IMG/VR virus record: IMGVR_UViG_2778261268_000002
Reading direction: 5' to 3' (one strand)
DNA: 64,000 nt
Source of the DNA: a virus
Lineage: Duplodnaviria; Heunggongvirae; Uroviricota; Caudoviricetes
The notes beneath the pieces are model-generated. The model made no database searches. It saw only the letters and a list, made by a program, of their open reading frames with translations, and was not told the origin of the DNA. Position 1 is the stretch's first letter. Each line of letters opens with the position of its first letter. Below are positions 16,233-62,931 of this stretch, in pieces. Made by a program: the position numbers and the translations under genes.

Positions 16233-16249
16233 AATGCTCTAATAAATTT
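16233..16249 (+). promoter_or_regulatory. Repressor (C1-type) operator
   Basis: AATGCTCTAATAAATTT, one mismatch to the recurring ATTGCTCTAATAAATTT motif. Confidence 0.5.
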
Positions 16250-38050: not shown

Positions 38051-38126
38051 GATGGTGTAGCTCAGCGGTTAGAGCGGTTGACTGTTAATCAACGGGTCGA
38101 TGGTTCAAATCCATCCACCATCGCCA
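38051..38126 (+). tRNA. tRNA-Asn (anticodon GTT)
   Basis: Cloverleaf with acceptor GATGGTG/CACCATC, anticodon loop CTGTTAA, T-loop GGTTCAAATCC, encoded CCA. Confidence 0.9.
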
Positions 38127-38128
38127 AT

Positions 38129-38204
38129 GCCGGTTTAGCTCAGTTGGTAGAGCGCCTGCCTTGTAAGCAGGATGTCAGCGGTTCGAGTCCGTTAACCGGC
38201 ACCA
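38129..38204 (+). tRNA. tRNA-Thr (anticodon TGT)
   Basis: GCCGGTTTAGCTCAGTTGGTAGAGC..., anticodon loop CTTGTAA, T-loop GGTTCGAGTCC, encoded CCA; 2 nt after tRNA-Asn. Confidence 0.9.
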
Positions 38205-38767
38205 GCACAACAGGTAAGGGCATTCTCCCTTATAGGGCTTGGCTTAAATGCATCGAGTGCTCTTACCGTTGTGATGAAGTGCAGCTCTTTGAAGCAACCA
38301 GAAGATAAGCATCTGGCTTCACAACATAAACCGCAGGAACGACCAATAAACGGTAGTCCGTATGGAGAACACCCCGTTGAGGAAGAGGCCTGGCCGGAAC
38401 CGTAACCGGCGACTGGTAATGTGTGTAAATGGAGCGAAATATGTGGGCGTTTAACGGGATACGGGTTGTAACAGCGATTATTAACGGCGAACTTAAGTAT
38501 TCACGTTTCGAGACAAATGAACGTGATGGGAAATGTATTGGTGTGCGGTTAGTAAGAGAATACGCATAACAACTACAACGTTGAGAACACTGGCGTAACG
38601 GGGTCATATCCCAATCTATGAATAAATGTTGCGTTGCAGCGTGACAACCAGTGTTCTCAACATTGTGGTGAATGCACAGGCTGATGTGCCGCAACTACAG
38701 TAGTGCGCGCTTTGCGGGGCTTGCTACAACCCTGTGTCGGAGTTCAGCACCGACCATCACAATCACT

Positions 38768-38854
38768 GGAGAGTAGGGAGCATGGTGCTCAAACGGTCTT
38801 GAAAACCGTCCCATTGCGCAAGCGATGATGGTTCGATTCCATTACTCTCCGCCA
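38768..38854 (+). tRNA. tRNA-Ser-like element (anticodon TGA; class II, possibly pseudo)
   Basis: Acceptor GGAGAGT/ACTCTCC, anticodon arm ACGGT-CTTGAAA-ACCGT, long variable arm with GCAA tetraloop, T-loop TTCGATT, CCA; D-arm is short. Confidence 0.45.
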
Positions 38855-39117
38855 GTGCAACGTTAAGAGTATTTGGCTAATTAAGCGAATGCCGGAAGCA
38901 GAACCGGATCACCAAATGCGTACAGGCGTCATCGCCGCCCAGCCAGCCAAGTGCTCTTACCATTGCGGTGAATGCGGCTATGCGCACGCGGAACAGTTAA
39001 AACAATCCTCCTTAGTGGTTAAGTCAAACATCCCGGCGTTAATTGTTAACTGGTTAACGTCACCTGGAGGCACCAGGCACCGCAGCTTTTTTATTCGTTA
39101 AATAATGGAGTGAGAGG

Positions 39118-39354
39118 ATGCAGAACAATCCGAACAAATGTCGAACGCTATGGGTGCGGTTATATATTTATGCCGTCCTCTGTTTGATTGTGTCACTGGT
39201 TCTGTATGTTTGGCTTTTGCCAAATATGATCTCATCTAACAGCACAATACTTGTATTGTTGGGAGTCCTTTTCGCGCTCATTTACCCGGCTTTCGCAGTA
39301 GTCTTTTTTCGTGAAAAAACCAGGAAATTAATTAATGAAAAAAACGTTGATTAG
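39118..39354 (+). CDS. Small integral membrane protein
   Basis: 78 aa, two hydrophobic helices; overlaps the start of the downstream lipoprotein gene. Confidence 0.5.
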   Translation: MQNNPNKCRTLWVRLYIYAVLCLIVSLVLYVWLLPNMISSNSTILVLLGVLFALIYPAFAVVFFREKTRKLINEKNVD

Positions 39355-53044: not shown

Positions 53045-53551
53045 TTGAGTATTTTCAATAAACACGCACACCAGGAACGTCCGTATATCGTCATAGTAGA
53101 TATTGATGGGACGATATCGGAGGCAACGGAAGACAGACTGCATTTACTTCCACCACCTGGCAAAGGTGCATTAACAGAGCACTGGAACGAGTTTAACCTT
53201 GCCTGTGACACTGATGCTCCCATCACTCCAGTTATTGATATGGTGCGCCAGTTGTCCAGCATTTACACGCTCTGGTTTGTAACCGGGCGCTGTGAGATAG
53301 CCAGGGATAAAACACGAGCTTGGTTGCGTAAGCACGTAACAAATGGGGCTGAGCCTTTGCTATCTATGCGTCCTGCCACCGATGACAGAAATGACGGCCC
53401 TGCAAAGATTGATCTCCTGAAGAAAATTGGTCTAAGTAAAATTGCGTTCGCGCTGGAAGATAAGATTGAAGTGGCGCGTGTTTTCAGGAGTCACGGCGTG
53501 CTTACGTTAATGGTCAGGGAGTATGAAAACGCGCTTCTCCATCAACAATAA
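53045..53551 (+). CDS. HAD-superfamily phosphatase
   Basis: Motif I VIVDIDGT near the N-terminus. Confidence 0.55.
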   Translation: MSIFNKHAHQERPYIVIVDIDGTISEATEDRLHLLPPPGKGALTEHWNEFNLACDTDAPITPVIDMVRQLSSIYTLWFVTGRCEIARDKTRAWLRKHVTNGAEPLLSMRPATDDRNDGPAKIDLLKKIGLSKIAFALEDKIEVARVFRSHGVLTLMVREYENALLHQQ

Positions 53552-53567
53552 TTGCTCTAATAAATAT
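53551..53567 (+). promoter_or_regulatory. Repressor (C1-type) operator
   Basis: ATTGCTCTAATAAATAT. Confidence 0.5.
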
Positions 53568-54337: not shown

Positions 54338-54964
54338 ATGATGTGCTTGCGTGAAACTGTGGGTAATAACGCCTCATTCCATTGCCATAACGGCAATGGT
54401 TACAGTTCTGATATCGATCGCGCTCATATTTACACGCTGGAAGAAGCCCAAAAAGCCTGGAATTGTGGGCGAGATATCGATCAGCCTGTTTGTGCCGATA
54501 GTGTGGATGCAATGGCTGTGTGGCACGTTGATTGCCAGTACATCCCTACAGAAAGCCTGATTGAGTCAGATTGCACTGAGTATGTGGCCTACAAAAAAGG
54601 TAGCTGGAACGGCAACGATGTTTACTGGCTTCAACACGGTGGATTGCCAACAGATGACTTCAGTAAAGCGACCATCTTTAGCGTCGTCAACAAAAACGAA
54701 CCAGGAATAGTTTGGTTGCCATTTTCCATTGCTGATGCAGCAAAGCGCCGGACGTTCAATATCAATAACTTTAACCGCAGAACAATGGTTCAGGGCGCAG
54801 GTTTGGTCATGCCTGACTGGTTGAAAGAGCAGAACAGAAGAAAGAAGTCGCGAAGCGGGAAGGTGCGTTGGAATTGTCCGCATTGCGGAAAAATAACCTG
54901 GCAGTACAGCCCATATGATTTTGAAGGCTGTAGTGATTACAACTGTGAAGGATGGCGAGAATGA
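54338..54964 (+). CDS. Hypothetical Cys-rich protein
   Basis: Start uncertain (ATG 54338, GTG 54320 or TTG 54296); C-terminal CPHCGK...CSDYNCEGW. Confidence 0.4.
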   Translation: MMCLRETVGNNASFHCHNGNGYSSDIDRAHIYTLEEAQKAWNCGRDIDQPVCADSVDAMAVWHVDCQYIPTESLIESDCTEYVAYKKGSWNGNDVYWLQHGGLPTDDFSKATIFSVVNKNEPGIVWLPFSIADAAKRRTFNINNFNRRTMVQGAGLVMPDWLKEQNRRKKSRSGKVRWNCPHCGKITWQYSPYDFEGCSDYNCEGWRE

Positions 54965-55614
54965 CAATTGACTATCAGGTACTGCGTGAGGCGGCAGAAA
55001 AGGCAACACCAGACGAATGGGTCGCATTTATTTCGACGGATACTGGTACTTATGCGGTGCACACGCCCGGTGATGAACGATGTGAAGACGTTATCAAATG
55101 GACCGGCTTTGATGGACAGAAAAATGCAGAGAACAACGCTCGTCATGTTGCCGCGTTCAACCCAAAGGTTGCACTGGAGCTGCTTGGTGAAATTAAGTGC
55201 TTGGAGGACACAAATATTGATGCCACGTGCCGAATTTCAGAGCTTGAGACTAATCTCGCTGCGCTGGTGGCAGAGAACGCTGGGCTGAAACACGCAATGG
55301 CCGTAACTCTTGAGCATGTGTCGGTCACGGATGCAGGGCAGGCCGGAGTTGCTGCAATGATTATCAACGATGCCCTGCACCACAGCGAAACTCCAGCTAC
55401 CGATGCTTTCCTGTCTGAAGTGCGGGCGCAGGGGGTGGATGCTGCTATAGAAGCTGCAAAAAATCTGGTGGCCCAAGAATATGAGTATAAGGATTTCAAA
55501 GCGGCGCAGAGTGATTGCTGTATGCACCCTGGTTCAGACCTGGTAGGGAAGGTTGAAATGACTGAGTGGTTAGTTGACTTTGCTGCCCAGCTTCGCAAAG
55601 GAGGCAACCAGTGA
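54961..55614 (+). CDS. ead/Ea22-like protein
   Basis: MTIDYQVLREAAEKATPDEW...; ATGA overlap with the upstream stop. Confidence 0.55.
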   Translation: MTIDYQVLREAAEKATPDEWVAFISTDTGTYAVHTPGDERCEDVIKWTGFDGQKNAENNARHVAAFNPKVALELLGEIKCLEDTNIDATCRISELETNLAALVAENAGLKHAMAVTLEHVSVTDAGQAGVAAMIINDALHHSETPATDAFLSEVRAQGVDAAIEAAKNLVAQEYEYKDFKAAQSDCCMHPGSDLVGKVEMTEWLVDFAAQLRKGGNQ

Positions 55615-56363
55615 GCGAAATTAATTACCAGGCACTGCGTGAGGCGGCGGAACGTGCAATTCCAGCAATGGAACGCCTGTTAATGTTGCCAGCTGATGAT
55701 GATTTGTTAAGTGAACAGGAACTTAAAGATTACGGTGTGGATATTGATGCGCTCAACGCCTTCAAATTTCTGACCGGACCAGAAACCGTGCTGGCGCTGC
55801 TGGATGAACGGGAAAGAAACCAGCAATACATAAAACGCCGCGATCAGGAGAACGAGGATATTGCGCTAACGGTAGGGAAGCTGAGAGTTGAGCTTGAGGA
55901 AGTAAAACAACACGCTGAAGAATTATCCGAAACCAAGGCTGTTCGTAACCAATGGCGGCCAGATATTTGCCCAATAACCGGACGTGCATTTTTCATGTGG
56001 ATTGAGCATCCAACATTGGGAAATGTGCCGACATATGGTGGCCCATTAGATAGTTACACCATTCCAACAAAGGACGGTGACGGTGAGTTTTCATGTGAGC
56101 GTTACGATCATGATTTTGGCGGTTGGGTAGAAAGCGAATGTCTTGGGTTATATCTGATTGATGATAGAGAACAATGCAGGGTCTACGAACTGGAGGAACG
56201 CGTTAAGGAACTGGATGCTCGGGAAATATCGCTCCCGGAACGTAGCAGCATGCTTCATCGAACAGATTTTCACGATGATTACCAAACGGTAATGGCATAC
56301 AAAGTTTCTGAAGTCATCGCTGCAATCCGCGCCGCAGGCATTCGCATCAAAGGAGGTGAGTAA
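55611..56363 (+). CDS. ead/Ea22-like protein (second paralogue)
   Basis: GTG start; MSEINYQALREAAERAIPAMERLL... Confidence 0.55.
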   Translation: MSEINYQALREAAERAIPAMERLLMLPADDDLLSEQELKDYGVDIDALNAFKFLTGPETVLALLDERERNQQYIKRRDQENEDIALTVGKLRVELEEVKQHAEELSETKAVRNQWRPDICPITGRAFFMWIEHPTLGNVPTYGGPLDSYTIPTKDGDGEFSCERYDHDFGGWVESECLGLYLIDDREQCRVYELEERVKELDAREISLPERSSMLHRTDFHDDYQTVMAYKVSEVIAAIRAAGIRIKGGE

Positions 56364-56539
56364 TGCGTGTGGCATGTATCGGCTTGTTACCGTACCCGAC
56401 TCGTTTTTGGGCTTCTGCGCTAATTGCAAAGCCGTATGTCCTGATGGCTGACAACATCATCCCGGCACCAAAGCGCCGCCATACCGGTATTGCAGCGGCA
56501 CGACGAGCAGCAAAGAGACGCAGGAGAGCAAAGCGATGA
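56363..56539 (+). CDS. Small basic protein (58 aa)
   Basis: C-terminal RRAAKRRRRAKR; TAATG overlap upstream, ATGA overlap downstream. Confidence 0.35.
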   Translation: MRVACIGLLPYPTRFWASALIAKPYVLMADNIIPAPKRRHTGIAAARRAAKRRRRAKR

Positions 56540-56712
56540 AAAACCGTAAGGCAAAACGACTTTTTTTACAGCGACCTGTGCGTGTGGTGGAGCTGGTTAT
56601 TAGCAACCATAAGATAGCGGTACTCCATCCATTTGGTCAGGTGGCTTTTGCCGCAAAGCGTAAGCCTACTGCGTCACAGAACAGGCGGAAGAAAGGGTAC
56701 GCTGTAAGATGA
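56536..56712 (+). CDS. Small basic protein (58 aa), paralogue
   Basis: MKNRKAKRLFLQR...KPTASQNRRKKG; 5' 20 nt repeated at 56709. Confidence 0.4.
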   Translation: MKNRKAKRLFLQRPVRVVELVISNHKIAVLHPFGQVAFAAKRKPTASQNRRKKGYAVR

Positions 56713-56897
56713 AAAACCGTAAAGCAAAGATTCTGTTAGTTCGTAGAAACGCTCCTGGCGTCTGGCAGTGGGTGAGACTCAGCAACCGACGGATGGGGTT
56801 GATGAAATATTACGGGATGATGGATTGTGGTTTTTGCAAAAAGCCCAGCGCGGCGCAAAACCGCTGGAAAAACCACTTGCGCACTAAAGGAGAGTGA
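56709..56897 (+). CDS. Small basic protein (62 aa), paralogue
   Basis: MKNRKAKILLVRR...KPSAAQNRWKNH. Confidence 0.4.
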   Translation: MKNRKAKILLVRRNAPGVWQWVRLSNRRMGLMKYYGMMDCGFCKKPSAAQNRWKNHLRTKGE

Positions 56898-56898
56898 T

Positions 56899-57414
56899 AT
56901 GGCGTTAACACACCGCGAACTCTGTCAGATTGCGTATAAGTTCCTTAAGCGCAACGGGTTCAAGGTTTGTTTTCATGACCGCTTTATAGCTGTAACCAGT
57001 ACCGGAGAACAGCCAGATGCTATGGGATTCAGAAATTCAGCATCATGCCTGATAGAGGCGAAGTGTTCTCGTGCTGACTTGTTGGCAGATAGAAAAAAGC
57101 GTTTTCGTAAAAATCCATCTCTTGGAATGGGCGACTGGCGATTCTTTATTAGTGAGCCGGGAATTATTTCAGTTGAGGATTTACCACCTGGCTGGGGATT
57201 ACTTCACGTTGTTAACGGAAGAGTACGGAAAGTACATGGGTGGCCCAAGGGTAATTGCTGTTGGGGTAATCCTGACGATAAGCCATTTACTGGAAATAAG
57301 CAGGTTGAATGCGATTACATGTTATCTGCATTAAGGCGCATGGAGTTGAGAGGGCACCTTAATGAAATATATGACGGTGTAATTGTTAATAAGAAAGAAG
57401 GAAACGCGGCATGA
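56899..57414 (+). CDS. PD-(D/E)xK nuclease, Hjc-type resolvase-like
   Basis: 171 aa from ATG 56899 (RBS AAGGAGAG); ...KRNGFKVCF...GEQPDAMGF...CLIEAKCS. Confidence 0.5.
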   Translation: MALTHRELCQIAYKFLKRNGFKVCFHDRFIAVTSTGEQPDAMGFRNSASCLIEAKCSRADLLADRKKRFRKNPSLGMGDWRFFISEPGIISVEDLPPGWGLLHVVNGRVRKVHGWPKGNCCWGNPDDKPFTGNKQVECDYMLSALRRMELRGHLNEIYDGVIVNKKEGNAA

Positions 57415-58127
57415 TCACTATTACCAAAGAGCGACTACTGACAATCAAGCAGTGGCGCGAAACATACGGACCTGGTAGCAACGTTGTACTGCCAGCAGAA
57501 GAGGCGGAAGAACTGGCACGAATTGCGCTGGCATCGCTGGAAGCAGATCCAGTTGCTTATATTTTCAAACATCCGGCCGGGAAATTATTCTGGTCTTTAA
57601 CGGATGAAAGCAATAAAGAGCAAGCGGACGTTATTCCTGTTTATGCTGCCGCGCCTGCGTCGGTTGTGCCGGATAATGCATCAGAGCCTCTTGCTTATGC
57701 TTACAAAGAGCTTACGCCTGAGATTATGCGCAACCATTTAGCTGTATTCGAGCGATATGGAATAGCCCCAAACGATAGCTCTACCACAATTCAGGCACTG
57801 CGAATCGCGCTGGATGGCATAGAGCGGAGCGACGCCATGCTTCATGGTGCCGAACCTGTAAGCCAAACTTACAAGTTGAACCAGCTATCGGGCAACTCTC
57901 CGGCAACTCCGGATGGTTGGATAAGCTGTAGTGAGCGAATGCCGAATACCAAAACAGCCGTTCTTGTTGCCGTGGAGTTTGACAGGAAAGGTGACTGGCG
58001 AATGAAATGGGCTACTTACATCCCCGGGCATCCTGACGCTAATGATGGGTGGATAATTCCTGGTGCGTCGTGGAAACCGTCACACTGGATGCCGCTACCA
58101 GAACCGCCGCAGGAGGTGAATCAATGA
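57411..58127 (+). CDS. DUF551 domain protein
   Basis: C-terminal W..CSERMP...VLVAV...W...PSHWMPLPEPP. Confidence 0.6.
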   Translation: MITITKERLLTIKQWRETYGPGSNVVLPAEEAEELARIALASLEADPVAYIFKHPAGKLFWSLTDESNKEQADVIPVYAAAPASVVPDNASEPLAYAYKELTPEIMRNHLAVFERYGIAPNDSSTTIQALRIALDGIERSDAMLHGAEPVSQTYKLNQLSGNSPATPDGWISCSERMPNTKTAVLVAVEFDRKGDWRMKWATYIPGHPDANDGWIIPGASWKPSHWMPLPEPPQEVNQ

Positions 58128-58921: not shown

Positions 58922-59296
58922 ATGATGACACTAAAACATTTTCTTGACCGCCCATTATGGGCGGCAGCCGCAGGCTATGACTTTAATTATATGGATTGCA
59001 TGTCTTATACTGCCAATGCATACGACCATTCGTTCAGCCTGCTGTTTAATTCTTTAAGAATATTGCCGGAAACAGAAGTTGGAGAGCTTCATTTATGGAT
59101 ATTGGGCTTTATCGCGGCTGGAGTTGGTATTGCCGTATGGCCTTTTATTTTCTGGCTGGTGGCTGTTGTAGTGTGGTTTAAGTGCAAGACGTACCGGAAA
59201 AAGTATTTCTTAGGTGATGGAATGACTGATATTGCCAAAATGAACATTGAAAAATGGACTAAGGAATGTGAAAAGAAATGGCGCAAAAAGAAATGA
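58922..59296 (+). CDS. Membrane protein with Lys-rich C-terminal tail
   Basis: TM helix LWILGFIAAGVGIAVWPFIFWLVAVVVWF then KCKTYRKK...EKKWRKKK. Confidence 0.45.
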   Translation: MMTLKHFLDRPLWAAAAGYDFNYMDCMSYTANAYDHSFSLLFNSLRILPETEVGELHLWILGFIAAGVGIAVWPFIFWLVAVVVWFKCKTYRKKYFLGDGMTDIAKMNIEKWTKECEKKWRKKK

Positions 59297-59958
59297 CTAC
59301 TCTAACGACAGCATACTTACAGCAATTGGTATTTTTTGCAGGCGAGGCTACTTGTCATCCTGACGCAAACTATTTATTGGAATTTGAGAGGTTAGCGTCA
59401 CCCGGTATCGTTCTGGAACTGGCCCAACAGGTGCTGGCCTTGAGACAAAAAGAGCAACATGAAAGTAATACGTGTAGATTGAATTTTGAGCAGTGGCTGG
59501 AACAGCAACGCGGAAAAATCGATGTGGACTGTGGTTGTGTGTCCACTGAAACATTCATGCACTGGCTGCGGGTAGCTTACGAGGCTGGCAACTATCCGGA
59601 TATTCCGGATAGTTCGGTGCCAGCGCCAGGAAAGGGCGTCACCGGTGAACGTATCCGCATTAAGCCGCATGTTTATCGCGAACTGGTTAACCGTCTCCAC
59701 GATACAGCGATCAAGTGTGCTGGCACCCAGCAATTACGAGAAAGAATTAGCCGTGTTTTGGGCGACGTTATTACGCCAGATCATCATAAACAAGCCGAGA
59801 AAAGTGACCTGGAAAGGTGTCACCTTGAGGCGGCATTAAACATTAAGCCGGGGCATACGCTTGGCATTATCGATGCTCTGTTGGTTCATAAGATGGCCAG
59901 GGCTTTATTGCCGCTGGTGGCTGAAAAACATGAGGTGGACCATGCCAACGAAAGCTGA
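59278..59958 (+). CDS. Hypothetical protein
   Basis: 226 aa. Confidence 0.45.
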   Translation: MAQKEMTTLTTAYLQQLVFFAGEATCHPDANYLLEFERLASPGIVLELAQQVLALRQKEQHESNTCRLNFEQWLEQQRGKIDVDCGCVSTETFMHWLRVAYEAGNYPDIPDSSVPAPGKGVTGERIRIKPHVYRELVNRLHDTAIKCAGTQQLRERISRVLGDVITPDHHKQAEKSDLERCHLEAALNIKPGHTLGIIDALLVHKMARALLPLVAEKHEVDHANES

Positions 59959-60226
59959 GTTACAGGCGCGCATAGATATTCTTGAAAAAGAGAATGCGAG
60001 TCTAAAAGGAATGCTGGCGCGGGCGGAAAGGGAATTATCAGGCAAATTATTGCCAGAAGAGCTGCCACCAGCAGATATACCTGATCGAGTGTCCTGGTGG
60101 ATGAAGTATTTCCGTGCACCGTGGGAGGCGTTTTGGTGCTACGACCATCGCAGATGGTGTGATGAGCTTGATAGCAGTTTCCCCTATTTTGCGGAAGGGA
60201 ACTCTTGCCCTGAATGTAGGAGTTAA
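59942..60226 (+). CDS. Coiled-coil / CxxC protein, paralogue 1
   Basis: ...WWMKYFRAPWEAFWCYDHRRWCDELDSSFPYFAEGNSCPECRS. Confidence 0.45.
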   Translation: MPTKAELQARIDILEKENASLKGMLARAERELSGKLLPEELPPADIPDRVSWWMKYFRAPWEAFWCYDHRRWCDELDSSFPYFAEGNSCPECRS

Positions 60227-60531
60227 TGATGACCGGCGAGCTTTATTTTAAAATGGCACGGGAGCGGCGTGTGCATCTGGATCGGATATTTCATCTCCAG
60301 AAGAGAGTAGAAGAACTGGAACGTCGTCTGAACTGTTATCCTGTTGATATGGTGTCTGCAATACCGCCGATTCCAATAGAAATGCAGATCCGCCTATGGA
60401 TGGAAGAATATGGAATGCCGTGGGAGATATTTTTCTGCTTCGACCATAAACAGTGGGTAGATGAGCTGGATAATAGTTTCCCATATTTCACAGAGAACAC
60501 ATGCCCAGTATGCAGGAAGAACGGAATATGA
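60226..60531 (+). CDS. Coiled-coil / CxxC protein, paralogue 2
   Basis: ...LWMEEYGMPWEIFFCFDHKQWVDELDNSFPYFTENTCPVCRKNGI. Confidence 0.45.
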   Translation: MMTGELYFKMARERRVHLDRIFHLQKRVEELERRLNCYPVDMVSAIPPIPIEMQIRLWMEEYGMPWEIFFCFDHKQWVDELDNSFPYFTENTCPVCRKNGI

Positions 60532-61052
60532 CAAAATTTGGAAAGCTGGAAGCTCATTTGCTAACTCGTAACTACCGCCATGATATACACCCATATAGAC
60601 AGTGGATCGATGAAAGCGAAGGAGTAGTTACATTCCCTCTATACAGGTTTGATGGGATGTTGGCTGGGTATCAGACATATAGACCAGGTGCTCCTAAGCA
60701 GCATAGCAATCCGAAGATGGCCCGGTATTTCACGCGATCACACGGCAGACAATTACTTTGGGGAACCTATCTTCCTTTAAAAGATGGCCCAATATGGATA
60801 ACTGAGTCTATTTTTAAGAGCGCAGCTGTACACAATGCGGGCGGCAATTCGTGGGCGCTGTTAGGTTCGACTTTCTCCGCAGGATTACGCCGTCAACTTG
60901 CGATGCTGCCGTATGACTTTCGTGTAATAGGTGACAATGATGCGGCTGGTGAATTACTTGTGAAGTCTTTCGGAAAAGGTTTTGTGGCCCCGGATCTTGA
61001 CGAGCTACAACCACATGAAGTGTCTCATTTGATTTTTAGCCATAGCCAATAA
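60528..61052 (+). CDS. Toprim-like domain protein
   Basis: 175 aa; IWITESIFKSAAV ... RVIGDNDAAGELL (conserved Glu and DxD pattern). Confidence 0.4.
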   Translation: MTKFGKLEAHLLTRNYRHDIHPYRQWIDESEGVVTFPLYRFDGMLAGYQTYRPGAPKQHSNPKMARYFTRSHGRQLLWGTYLPLKDGPIWITESIFKSAAVHNAGGNSWALLGSTFSAGLRRQLAMLPYDFRVIGDNDAAGELLVKSFGKGFVAPDLDELQPHEVSHLIFSHSQ

Positions 61053-61067
61053 GCATCTCTCCCCTTT

Positions 61068-61088
61068 GAGGCCACAATTAGTGGCCTT
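61068..61088. terminator. Bidirectional stem-loop between convergent genes
   Basis: GAGGCCAC-AATTA-GTGGCCTT. Confidence 0.5.
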
Positions 61089-61112
61089 AAACAATGTGTT
61101 TTCTACCTCGAT

Positions 61113-61694
61113 TTAGCCTCTATTATCGTTTTGCATTTCTCTAATCCGGTTCAGAACTACTTCATGCTGGGCTTGGATAGCGGCTTTTTCGTTTTCAAGT
61201 CGGGCAATAGACATCTCTAATTCTTTGCTGTACCAGGCGAGTTGGGCCAGGTTCATCCGGTTGTGGTCGAGAGTTGGAGACACTTCGACGCGATCCCTTT
61301 CTTCCTGCTTTAATGAGAAGAGATTCATCTCATCCCTTGAGGAAAATTCAGCAACAATTTCTTGTTGATGATCCGGTCGCTGCGGCATCCTCGCCAGTAT
61401 AAATGGCGGTTCTTTTGAAAACATGAATGACGGTTTAGACCGTGTTTTGACCCATCTAGCTTGCTGTCTTTCGGCAAGTTCACAGGCTTCATCATAGTTA
61501 TCTACAAAACCAAGCACGGATGGACGGTCCCACGCGCCACCATTCAGACAATAAACAAGAATTTTCCCGTCAGGTTCTGTAACTCCATAGGGATGGTCCC
61601 ACCAGGCGTCCAGCTGGGCTTTGGAGCGTTTCTCGTTAGGAGTGCAGTCAAAATTTTTGGGCAATGCAGGATCGAGAGGAATGCGGGCAGGCAT
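61113..61694 (-). CDS. Hypothetical protein divergent from humD (possibly SOS-regulated)
   Basis: 193 aa; promoter region shared with the LexA-box-containing humD promoter. Confidence 0.45.
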   Translation of the reverse strand: MPARIPLDPALPKNFDCTPNEKRSKAQLDAWWDHPYGVTEPDGKILVYCLNGGAWDRPSVLGFVDNYDEACELAERQQARWVKTRSKPSFMFSKEPPFILARMPQRPDHQQEIVAEFSSRDEMNLFSLKQEERDRVEVSPTLDHNRMNLAQLAWYSKELEMSIARLENEKAAIQAQHEVVLNRIREMQNDNRG

Positions 61695-61828: not shown

Positions 61829-61848
61829 TACTGTATAAATGAACAGTA
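61829..61848. promoter_or_regulatory. LexA (SOS) box
   Basis: TACTGTATAAATGAACAGTA = CTGT-N8-ACAG, 20 bp upstream of the humD start. Confidence 0.7.
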
Positions 61849-61867: not shown

Positions 61868-62257
61868 ATGGGCTTCCCTTCTCCTGCGGCGGATTATGTT
61901 GAAAGCCGAATTTCTCTTGATCAGCAACTAATCAGGCATCCATCAGCAACCTACTTCATGCGGGCAGCTGATAGCCATCACCGTGAGGGAATATTGCAGG
62001 GTGCTTTGCTGGTGGTTGATTCTTCGCTTACTCCAGTTGATGGTTCGCTGCTTGTGTGCGCTATGGAGGGTGAATATCGCATAAAGAGATACCGAAAGTA
62101 TCCGCGCCAGCACCTGGAGGATTTAAGCACCGGGAAGAAAGAGGCGTTACCAGTAGATGACGATGGATGCACGGGCAGTAATGCTGTGTTTGGTGTGATC
62201 ACTCATGTCATTAATGATGCCCGAAGTGGGGAATTTGATGATTGTCCGGTGATTTAA
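61868..62257 (+). CDS. humD: UmuD-like S24 peptidase
   Basis: 129 aa; LexA/UmuD-type self-cleaving peptidase fold pattern; preceded by a LexA box. Confidence 0.75.
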   Translation: MGFPSPAADYVESRISLDQQLIRHPSATYFMRAADSHHREGILQGALLVVDSSLTPVDGSLLVCAMEGEYRIKRYRKYPRQHLEDLSTGKKEALPVDDDGCTGSNAVFGVITHVINDARSGEFDDCPVI

Positions 62258-62321: not shown

Positions 62322-62329
62322 AGGTGTTT

Positions 62330-62551
62330 ATGCAATCCATTAACTTCCGTACCGCGCGCGGCAACCTTTCTGAAGTGCTCAACAATGTTGAAGCCGGGGA
62401 AGAGGTTGAAATCACCCGCAGAGGCCGTGAGCCAGCAGTAATTGTCAGCAAGGCTACTTTCGAAGCCTACAAAAAAGCGGCGCTGGATGCTGAATTTGCA
62501 TCCCTGTTTGACACCCTGGACTCCACCAACAAGGAACTGGTTAACCGATAA
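62330..62551 (+). CDS. phd: Antitoxin Phd
   Basis: 73 aa [41 protein letters not shown]...; RBS GAGGTG; stop overlaps doc start. Confidence 0.9.
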
Positions 62552-62931
62552 TGAGGCATATATCACCGGAAGAACTTATTGCGCTTCATGATGCGAATAT
62601 AAGCCGCTACGGCGGCCTGCCTGGCATGTCAGATCCGGGCAGGGCAGAGGCCATTATCGGGAGAGTTCAGGCCAGAGTTGCCTACGAAGAGATCACCGAC
62701 CTTTTCGAAGTCTCCGCCACCTACCTAGTGGCTACAGCGAGAGGGCATATATTCAATGATGCCAATAAGCGTACCGCGCTAAACAGCGCGCTGCTATTTC
62801 TACGCCGTAACGGGGTGCAGGTATTTGATTCACCTGAACTGGCAGACCTTACTGTAGGCGCTGCGACTGGCGAGATATCTGTATCTTCTGTCGCCGACAC
62901 GTTACGTAGATTGTATGGTTCTGCGGAGTAG
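62551..62931 (+). CDS. doc: Toxin Doc (Fic-fold kinase)
   Basis: 126 aa [25 protein letters not shown]...[19 protein letters not shown]. Confidence 0.9.

Follow-up and report, generated by a model that had tools for sequence, protein, structure and literature searches.

A stand-alone DnaG-type primase core and two zinc-motif paralogues in a hypervariable slot of a P1-like phage-plasmid

Three overlapping genes at the end of an accessory operon

We analysed a 64,000-nucleotide stretch of DNA (the window) from IMG/VR virus record IMGVR_UViG_2778261268_000002 (Caudoviricetes), which is a P1-like phage-plasmid, and focused on three overlapping genes of its plus strand. CHCC-A (59942..60226; 94 amino acids, aa) starts at an ATG placed after GAGGTGG and overlaps by 17 nucleotides the preceding open reading frame (ORF) at 59278-59958. 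CHCC-B (60226..60531; 101 aa) begins in a TAATG overlap with CHCC-A and has AGGAG ahead of its start, and gene C (60528..61052; 174 aa), whose product we refer to as a mini-primase, begins in an ATGA overlap with the CHCC-B stop codon. A preliminary description of this DNA had taken the three genes for a possible primase-like or nuclease-like module, consisting of two tandem paralogues coupled through ATGA to a Toprim-like protein of 175 aa. The coupling is as described there, but the length has to be corrected to 174 aa, counted from ATG 60528. An alternative upstream ATG at 60501 would yield 183 aa; ATG 60528 is the most likely start, because similarity to homologues, and to copies that have another gene upstream (locus L013), begins at MTKFG.

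Protein C is predicted to be a minimal DnaG-type primase core

Single-sequence scans of Pfam and NCBIfam returned no match for protein C and nothing useful for CHCC-A or CHCC-B, and a single-sequence search of the Protein Data Bank (PDB) with protein C gave noise only. Since these scans were uninformative, family profiles were required. Protein C matched PHROG 849, annotated as 'DNA primase', with an E-value of 3.5e-53 over profile positions 145-333 of 435. An alignment of 12 family members displays the motifs FPL..f.G.L.GYQ.Y.P...K...NP...RYFT...WG, tE(G/S)iF(D/K)a, (G/C)DnDaAG and D(L)(D/G)E, and the corresponding profile, when searched against the PDB, matched the DnaG catalytic domains of Staphylococcus aureus, Escherichia coli, Pseudomonas aeruginosa and Aquifex aeolicus (E 0.001-0.02). 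Positions 21-140 of this profile align to DnaG positions ~94-212 (construct numbering), including FP..d..G..G and PK...P, and the alignment spans both the N-terminal subdomain and the Toprim domain. Pfam Toprim_2 was matched by eight of the 12 family members; Iyer et al. (2017, PMC5512222) place this domain in DnaG-like primases of mobile elements that are catalytically active.

An AlphaFold model of protein C (pLDDT 90.3, pTM 0.86) was then compared with the PDB using Foldseek, and the top 38 matches were all DnaG, T7 gp4 or T4 gp61 primase domains, with ~165 residues aligned for DnaG and T7 and a query-normalised TM-score of up to 0.68. Further down the ranking, after the primases, came bare Toprim domains, for instance that of RNase M5. 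A Toprim fold is thus predicted for gene C by the PHROG profile, the PDB profile search and the fold search alike, and the Glu and DxD pattern that had first suggested it corresponds to E93 and D136-N-D138, lying within the predicted beta-alpha Toprim fold. We assessed conservation over 136 sequences, namely the query and 135 stand-alone members, most of which are representatives of 50%-identity clusters: E93 is conserved in 99%, D136 in 90%, D138 in 91% and D156 in 93%, while Y67 and G79 reach 100%. This 90-100% conservation of the Toprim acidic residues and of several N-terminal residues argues for retention of enzymatic activity.

Protein C comprises an N-terminal beta subdomain, with the conserved basic/aromatic motifs for nucleotide and template binding, followed by a Toprim domain with E93, D136-x-D138 and D156. 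It is devoid of Cys residues and hence of a zinc-binding domain, the catalytic core accounting for all 174 residues, and it ends ~15 residues past the last Toprim motif, leaving no helicase-binding domain or fused helicase. Sequence profiles and model together therefore predict a primase catalytic core of the DnaG type, minimal yet complete, made up of the N-terminal subdomain and Toprim. The earlier primase-like reading is strengthened to this extent, as the whole protein corresponds to a DnaG/T7 gp4-type catalytic core, whereas the three-gene module proposed with it was not upheld (see below). RefSeq already labels gene C as a 'toprim domain-containing protein'.

The polymerase domain of bacterial DnaG (E. 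coli 1DD9/1EQN/3B39, S. aureus 4E2K, A. aeolicus 2AU3) has the same two-part core, in which a subdomain with F-P...G...G and P-K...P precedes the Toprim Glu and D-x-D, and these structures match protein C with a Foldseek E-value of 1e-5 and a query-normalised TM-score of 0.55-0.68. Protein C differs in being a phage-borne, single-domain protein of 174 aa, compared to a domain of ~320 aa, and in having Lys at the second Toprim Asp; DnaG moreover possesses an N-terminal CHC2 zinc ribbon and a C-terminal helicase-binding domain, neither of which is present in protein C. The T7 gp4 fragment (1NUI) and T4 gp61 (8DVF) are phage DnaG-type cores like protein C (Foldseek E 2e-5 to 1e-3; ~160 aligned columns for T7 and ~110 for T4 gp61), and the C-terminal D-x-x-acidic motif of protein C (DLDE) resembles the KDANE motif of T7 gp4. 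T7 gp4 carries a Cys4 zinc ribbon and a fused helicase, and T4 gp61 carries a zinc ribbon and binds gp41, whereas protein C has no such additions.

CHCC-A and CHCC-B are paralogues with a putative zinc-binding domain

CHCC-A and CHCC-B share 28/54 identities (52%; E 4e-22, BLASTP, single comparison), in agreement with their description as adjacent paralogues, and PHROG 3797 (function unknown) matches both, with E-values of 6e-58 and 1.6e-36, respectively. With a Toprim fold predicted for gene C and significant similarity between its two neighbours, the observation behind the preliminary description stands. The motif quoted there proved to be the signature of the whole family, PWE.F.C..H..W..EL..SFP......C..C, as seen across 34 members, in which P60, W61 and F64 never vary and C66, H69, W72, L76, F80, P81, C89 and C92 are each retained in 90% or more. 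In CHCC-A this region constitutes a putative C-terminal zinc-binding domain, C66-x2-H69-x19-C89-x2-C92, and CHCC-B has the same C-x2-H...C-x2-C domain behind a different coiled-coil N-terminus. The coiled-coil N-termini noticed earlier are likewise recovered, with AlphaFold placing a helix over residues 4-33 of CHCC-A, and with leucine-zipper-type Pfam and PDB matches that are weak only. Two N-terminal types occur in the family, type A (MPTKAELQAR...) and type B, which contains ELYFKMARERR..., and the window has one of each.

Both proteins most likely bind zinc and pair via their coiled coils, and we infer that their role is unrelated to the primase. They belong to a family of temperate-enterobacterial-phage accessory genes. 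DksA/TraR-type proteins are comparable in being small and phage- or plasmid-borne, and in combining a helical coiled coil with one four-ligand zinc motif; their zinc finger is of the C4 type. RefSeq and UniRef sometimes call CHCC-A homologues 'antitoxin PHD' (P0023, P0032, P0037 and P0052; plasmids CP101300.1, NZ_CP067234.1 and others), but CHCC-A has no PhdYeFM Pfam match and a true phd-doc pair is present at 62324-62931, 2 kb downstream, so the name is a propagated misannotation. Our first guess that CHCC-A is PmgU and CHCC-B is PmgV was also discarded: PmgU matches ORF 59278-59958, and PmgV is an unrelated coiled-coil protein.

A gene encoding a MAKS(A/P)AERKAAQRARQ... protein of ~112-136 aa, with a C-terminal Cys cluster, was observed downstream of CHCC in five lambdoid-prophage loci, immediately so in L149, L151, L154 and L157, and ~1.3 kb away, with an ORF in between, in L159 (7590-7928). 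It is a possible CHCC partner and is absent from the window.

The three genes do not consistently travel together

The neighbourhood analysis drew on 79 IMG/VR loci of the Toprim gene, 80 IMG/VR loci of CHCC genes and a set of annotated phage loci; hidden Markov models of both families were run against every locus. Toprim loci were split at 85% identity into 21 lineages, with flanks of up to ~6 kb, or less where a contig ended. Only one of the 21 Toprim lineages, the P1-like one, had a CHCC gene in the available flanks. Even there the arrangement varies: of 20 near-identical P1-like IMG/VR Toprim copies, 12 have A, B and Toprim, two have A followed by two unrelated small genes (one encoding a lipoprotein) and then Toprim, and six have Toprim with no CHCC gene, an annotated example being PhiR41_1, in which an EaA-like gene lies ahead. 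The triad was seen only in copies at least 97% identical. Most CHCC loci (67/80) had no Toprim gene, and CHCC genes were also found in the P22-like nin region and at the distal end of lambdoid-prophage early operons. Of the PLSDB plasmids, 266 match the 1.1-kb query in part, and in only 13 does a single aligned stretch cover at least 80% of the triad.

The components thus do not co-occur across diverged lineages and each gene is also found alone, which speaks against the proposed three-gene functional module. Instead, the three genes are independently mobile cassettes, adjacent by chance in one P1-like sublineage, and the triad locus is ordinary cassette shuffling in a known hypervariable region. 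An A-then-B tandem without Toprim does recur, in L161, L162 and L166 (57-65% identity) and in the P1-like contig L104, and for this reason the A+B pair may be a functional unit of its own.

Several observations concern exchange at this site. ORF 59278-59958 ends in ...HANES* and the unrelated P1 PmgV (L002:3373-3735) ends in ...NANES*, which resembles a recombination junction; such common endings suggest that cassettes are exchanged at gene boundaries. Chimeras were found in P0021, where a type A N-terminus is fused to type B, and in P0030, where CHCC-B is fused to the HumD C-terminus, and another P1 genome holds a truncated remnant of the Toprim gene (L001:4831-5061, MH422554.1). The chimeras and the remnant are evidence of ongoing recombination and decay in the slot. 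In two diverged contigs (L161:5663-6598 and L166:5482-6467), a HumD/UmuD-like gene lies directly upstream of the CHCC A+B tandem, so that the pair and an SOS-type gene travel together there in an arrangement differing from that of the window.

Mini-primases form a large family of phage genes

With clustering at 50% identity, an exhaustive profile search returned 1,638 clusters at a threshold of E<=0.001, of which 180 reached E<=1e-30, and single-domain proteins of 160-190 aa are the majority among the 150 clusters listed. A profile scan of genome contigs gave a single distant locus, and the mini-primase family is on that account essentially phage- and plasmid-borne in the collections searched. 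It includes T5p074, annotated as a 'DNA primase-like protein' in GenBank AY734508 and located within the T5 tRNA region, and the ~170-aa 'toprim domain-containing proteins' of Guernseyvirinae and jumbo Erwinia phages (PHROG 849), with which protein C shares 41-49% identity over >90% of its length, as well as size and motifs. The family is also present in many metagenomic phage contigs.

The settings of these genes differ: T5-like phages have the gene in a tRNA array, Guernseyvirinae have it behind an SNF2 helicase gene, and gene C lies in the P1 accessory operon. In Guernseyvirinae the mini-primase gene overlaps the end of the SNF2/DEAD helicase gene, within a cluster of polymerase and single-stranded DNA-binding protein (SSB) genes, and in the L058 contig group (six contigs) and L062 it follows a 324-aa ORF that by eye looks like a T4 gp32-like SSB. 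T5 also has a canonical zinc-ribbon-plus-core primase, T5.121, encoded beside the DnaB-like D6 gene and similar to T5p074 at the level of motifs only, and Kagunavirus phiWAO78-1 has an annotated helicase-primase, gp55, besides the mini-primase gp37. Because T5 and phiWAO78-1 carry a separately annotated primase, the mini-primase is an additional gene in the T5-like phages and Guernseyvirinae examined, and not the sole annotated primase.

Other contexts involve tRNA. Four separate lineages (L031, L034, L080 and L089, T5-like phages included) have the mini-primase gene within a tRNA array, and the protein is fused to a CCA-adding/poly(A)-polymerase head domain in P0187 (nucleotidyltransferase, NTase, and HD, then mini-primase) and in P0133 (mini-primase, then NTase). 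In Vibrio phage F89 g2 (L176:1631-3465), the mini-primase coding sequence overlaps an annotated tRNA nucleotidyltransferase coding sequence. We did not find this association with tRNA arrays and CCA enzymes described in the literature searched. As a neighbour, a CCA-adding enzyme was present in only one fetched locus. Further fusions are to Arr-type ADP-ribosyltransferase (twice), GNAT, Mom, HAD, cytidylyltransferase-like and ParB_N domains, and one bears an N-terminal zinc-finger domain, DUF3268; fusions are rare overall, and none is to a helicase. No conserved neighbour was found across the 21 lineages, nor any recurrent zinc-ribbon gene or helicase. In two metagenomic phage contigs (L171:3214-4641 and L172:2818-4230), a DUF2828/DUF7788 protein (470-475 aa) and a methyltransferase are encoded a few hundred bases upstream of the mini-primase, and tRNA-Arg is located just before both genes.

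The operon lies in a hypervariable region of the P1-like genome

DNA around the three genes is 93-97% identical to P1 and P1-like phage-plasmids, in pieces only. The identity of the element follows from a DNA match of 95% to P1 and P1-like phages in the flanking genes and from the presence, in P1 order, of lxr (61113-61694, minus strand), humD (61868-62257), phd (62324-62551) and doc (62551-62931). A LexA box with a perfect core, CTGTATAAATGAACAG (61831-61846), separates lxr from the divergently oriented humD, an arrangement shared with P1. Elsewhere in the window are Ban, a DnaB-type helicase (40545-41915), and four tRNA genes (Asn, Thr, Ser and Met/Ile-CAU type; 38051-40265). Reference P1 carries three, and the element may bear one extra tRNA gene (tRNA-Ser) in comparison.

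A C1-repressor operator-like site, ATTGCTCTAATAAATAT (53551..53567, plus strand), with one mismatch to the consensus used, occupies the same place as OpmgT in P1, after pap. The window contains nine such 17-mers, where 0.41 would be expected by chance; the others are at 16233, 17904, 34089, 37365, 37376, 47785, 51409 and 51458. A ~7.5 kb run of tightly packed, mostly overlapping plus-strand genes starts at the 53551 site and ends with the Toprim gene, CHCC-A, CHCC-B and gene C being the last three cistrons of this accessory-gene chain. By analogy to P1, the chain is probably switched on upon loss of the C1 repressor. Its end is likely marked by a hairpin (61065..61091; -17.3 kcal/mol, z -3.8) between the convergent Toprim gene and lxr, which is terminator-like only, as a clean T-run is absent.

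The region from pmgT to humD is one of eight hypervariable regions among 77 P1-like phage-plasmids compared (PMC9603915), and P1 itself fills the pmgT-lxr/humD slot with pmgU, pmgV, upfM/N/O and hot. In the window, the gene immediately ahead of CHCC-A in the same operon (59278..59958, plus strand; 226 aa) matches phrog_21459 (E 4e-85), and the C-terminal half of its product is homologous to P1 PmgU and to the PmgT C-terminus. Further upstream lie two adjacent Ead/Ea22-like paralogues (54952-55614 and 55611-56363; Pfam E 2.6e-23 and 2.7e-29) and a DUF551 protein (57411-58127), typical lambdoid 'ea'-type accessory genes within a P1-like operon. Between them are three tiny, very basic and translationally coupled ORFs of 58-62 aa (56363-56539, 56536-56712 and 56709-56897), of which the latter two have in common the N-terminus MKNRKAK and K-K-P-x-A-x-Q-N-R, and resemble tandem paralogues.

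A probable accessory primase and its alternatives

Overall, we consider with moderate confidence that the locus consists of cassettes in a P1-like hypervariable slot, in which gene C encodes an accessory mini-primase and CHCC-A and CHCC-B have a separate role. Our best guess for protein C is an accessory enzyme that synthesises RNA oligomers. It would be an active Mg2+-dependent ribonucleotidyl transferase, synthesising short oligomers of RNA on single-stranded DNA at an early stage of lytic growth, and would serve as an accessory primase alongside Ban and the host replisome rather than as the main lagging-strand primase. With no zinc-binding domain, its priming would have minimal sequence specificity, if any, or would need a partner for template choice. 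We favour a real nucleotidyl-transferase because the active site is conserved and because the gene is found in a replication-cluster context in some phages.

Several points weigh against this interpretation. The second Toprim acidic position is Lys97 here and Lys in 28% of the family, with Asp in 62%. Template-directed priming by known DnaG-type primases requires a zinc-binding domain, and their action at the fork requires a helicase-binding element; both are absent from protein C. Given the coexisting canonical primase, the role of the family may be other than DNA-replication priming, and many members occur in non-replication contexts (tRNA arrays, CCA-adding enzyme, assorted fusions). The C1-controlled expression of the accessory operon is deduced from P1. 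Literature on T5p074-like proteins and on the P1 region holds annotation only, and we found no enzymatic or genetic study of any member.

An unlikely alternative is that the mini-DnaG family acts on RNA, especially tRNA, rather than in DNA replication, and that the P1-like copy is a counter-defence cassette which, for example, rebuilds or trims damaged tRNA 3' ends with a CCA-adding enzyme against tRNA-targeting host defences. The two fusions to the CCA-adding head domain are independent and in opposite orders, and the overlap in F89 g2, the location within tRNA arrays in four lineages and the coexistence with a canonical primase in T5 all agree with such a role. Other Toprim proteins are RNases, with RNase M5 among the lower fold matches, and AriB and OLD are Toprim tRNases according to two reports (PMC12409363, PMC12445682). 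However, a CCA-adding enzyme is a neighbour in only one of ~22 lineages with flanks, large phages commonly park unrelated accessory genes in tRNA arrays, and no tRNA gene is nearby in the P1-like, Guernseyvirinae and several metagenomic contexts, the nearest in the window being 20 kb off. The fold is also that of a full primase core with its nucleotide-binding subdomain, not of a bare Toprim nuclease. In its more specific form, in which the family, P1-like copy included, would be an RNA-end polymerase or processing enzyme working with CCA-adding enzymes on damaged tRNAs and not a replication primase, we rate this proposal as somewhat less probable again. We think it improbable that protein C is a Toprim nuclease akin to OLD, Gabija or RNase M5, or a non-catalytic binder that diverts a host replication protein. 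Nucleases and primases have the Toprim acidic triad in common, position 97 departs from the usual Asp, and the accessory region is rich in counter-defence-type cassettes (Ead/Ea22, DUF551); yet PADLOC defence models gave no match at E<=0.1 for any of eight local proteins, and no ATPase partner was noticed among the surrounding ORFs, the eight longer of which were profile-scanned with no ATPase match. Neither the pairing of a Toprim nuclease with an ABC-type ATPase nor the model match that mark OLD/Gabija/PARIS-type defence was therefore found. The DnaG-type polymerisation motifs of the N-terminal subdomain are conserved as strongly as the Toprim residues, and primase cores match over ~165 residues, whereas nuclease Toprim domains match over only ~100, at E>0.01. 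Nothing specific supports a nuclease role for protein C.

A third possibility would restore the link between the three genes: CHCC-A, CHCC-B or both could supply the missing template-recognising zinc domain in trans, with the coiled coils mediating oligomerisation of a three-piece primase. The C-x2-H-x19-C-x2-C ligand order is that of the CHC2 zinc ribbon of bacterial DnaG, also seen in T5 pri as C-L-N-P-D-H...C-L-S-C, although in CHCC-A and CHCC-B the correspondence extends to the pattern only. Translation of the genes is coupled, and the family member fused to DUF3268 carries a zinc finger of a different kind. A precedent exists in jumbo phages, which are reported to encode a stand-alone primase-type zinc ribbon apart from, and beside, DnaG-like cores (Iyer et al. 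2021, PMC7824862). As in these split primases, the window encodes a catalytic core separately from a zinc domain, with a small Cys/His gene nearby; unlike in them, the CHCC proteins are not primase-type zinc ribbons by any test, and their linkage to the core is inconsistent. When the 34 CHCC members were all scanned against Pfam at E<=10, coiled-coil families alone were matched, with no zf-CHC2 or Prim_Zn_Ribbon, the CHCC profile search of the PDB at E<=10 gave no primase chain, and hhalign returned probabilities of 0.4% against the T5 primase zinc domain and 0.2% against DUF3268. The zinc-ribbon fold, with its two beta-hairpin knuckles, was not found in CHCC-A or CHCC-B. Tested in five ways, all negative, the CHCC domain shows no sequence or fold similarity to a primase zinc ribbon. 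Linkage is no more favourable: the available flanks of 20 of the 21 Toprim lineages are free of CHCC genes, six of the near-identical Toprim copies lack CHCC as well and two have A only, separated by the two unrelated genes, and most CHCC loci are without Toprim. We therefore regard a split primase of this kind as very unlikely, and CHCC paralogues as a new trans-acting zinc module as less likely than a role of the mini-primase at RNA ends.

Implications for P1-like elements and the mini-primase family

Nothing in the window departs from catalogued families (PHROG 849, PHROG 3797), and the locus shows the P1 pmgT-lxr hypervariable slot filled by single-gene cassettes. The primase-core gene sits where P1 has hot, a homologue of polymerase III theta, and both are replication-type accessory genes. 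Gene C also draws attention to a large family of stand-alone DnaG cores devoid of a zinc domain, with at least 180 clusters (50% identity) at E<=1e-30. Were the action on damaged tRNA ends together with CCA-adding enzymes to prove true, it would add a new branch to phage counter-defence, directed at immunity that cleaves tRNA. Knowing whether the role of the mini-primases is in unspecific priming, in restart or RNA-related would close an annotation gap.

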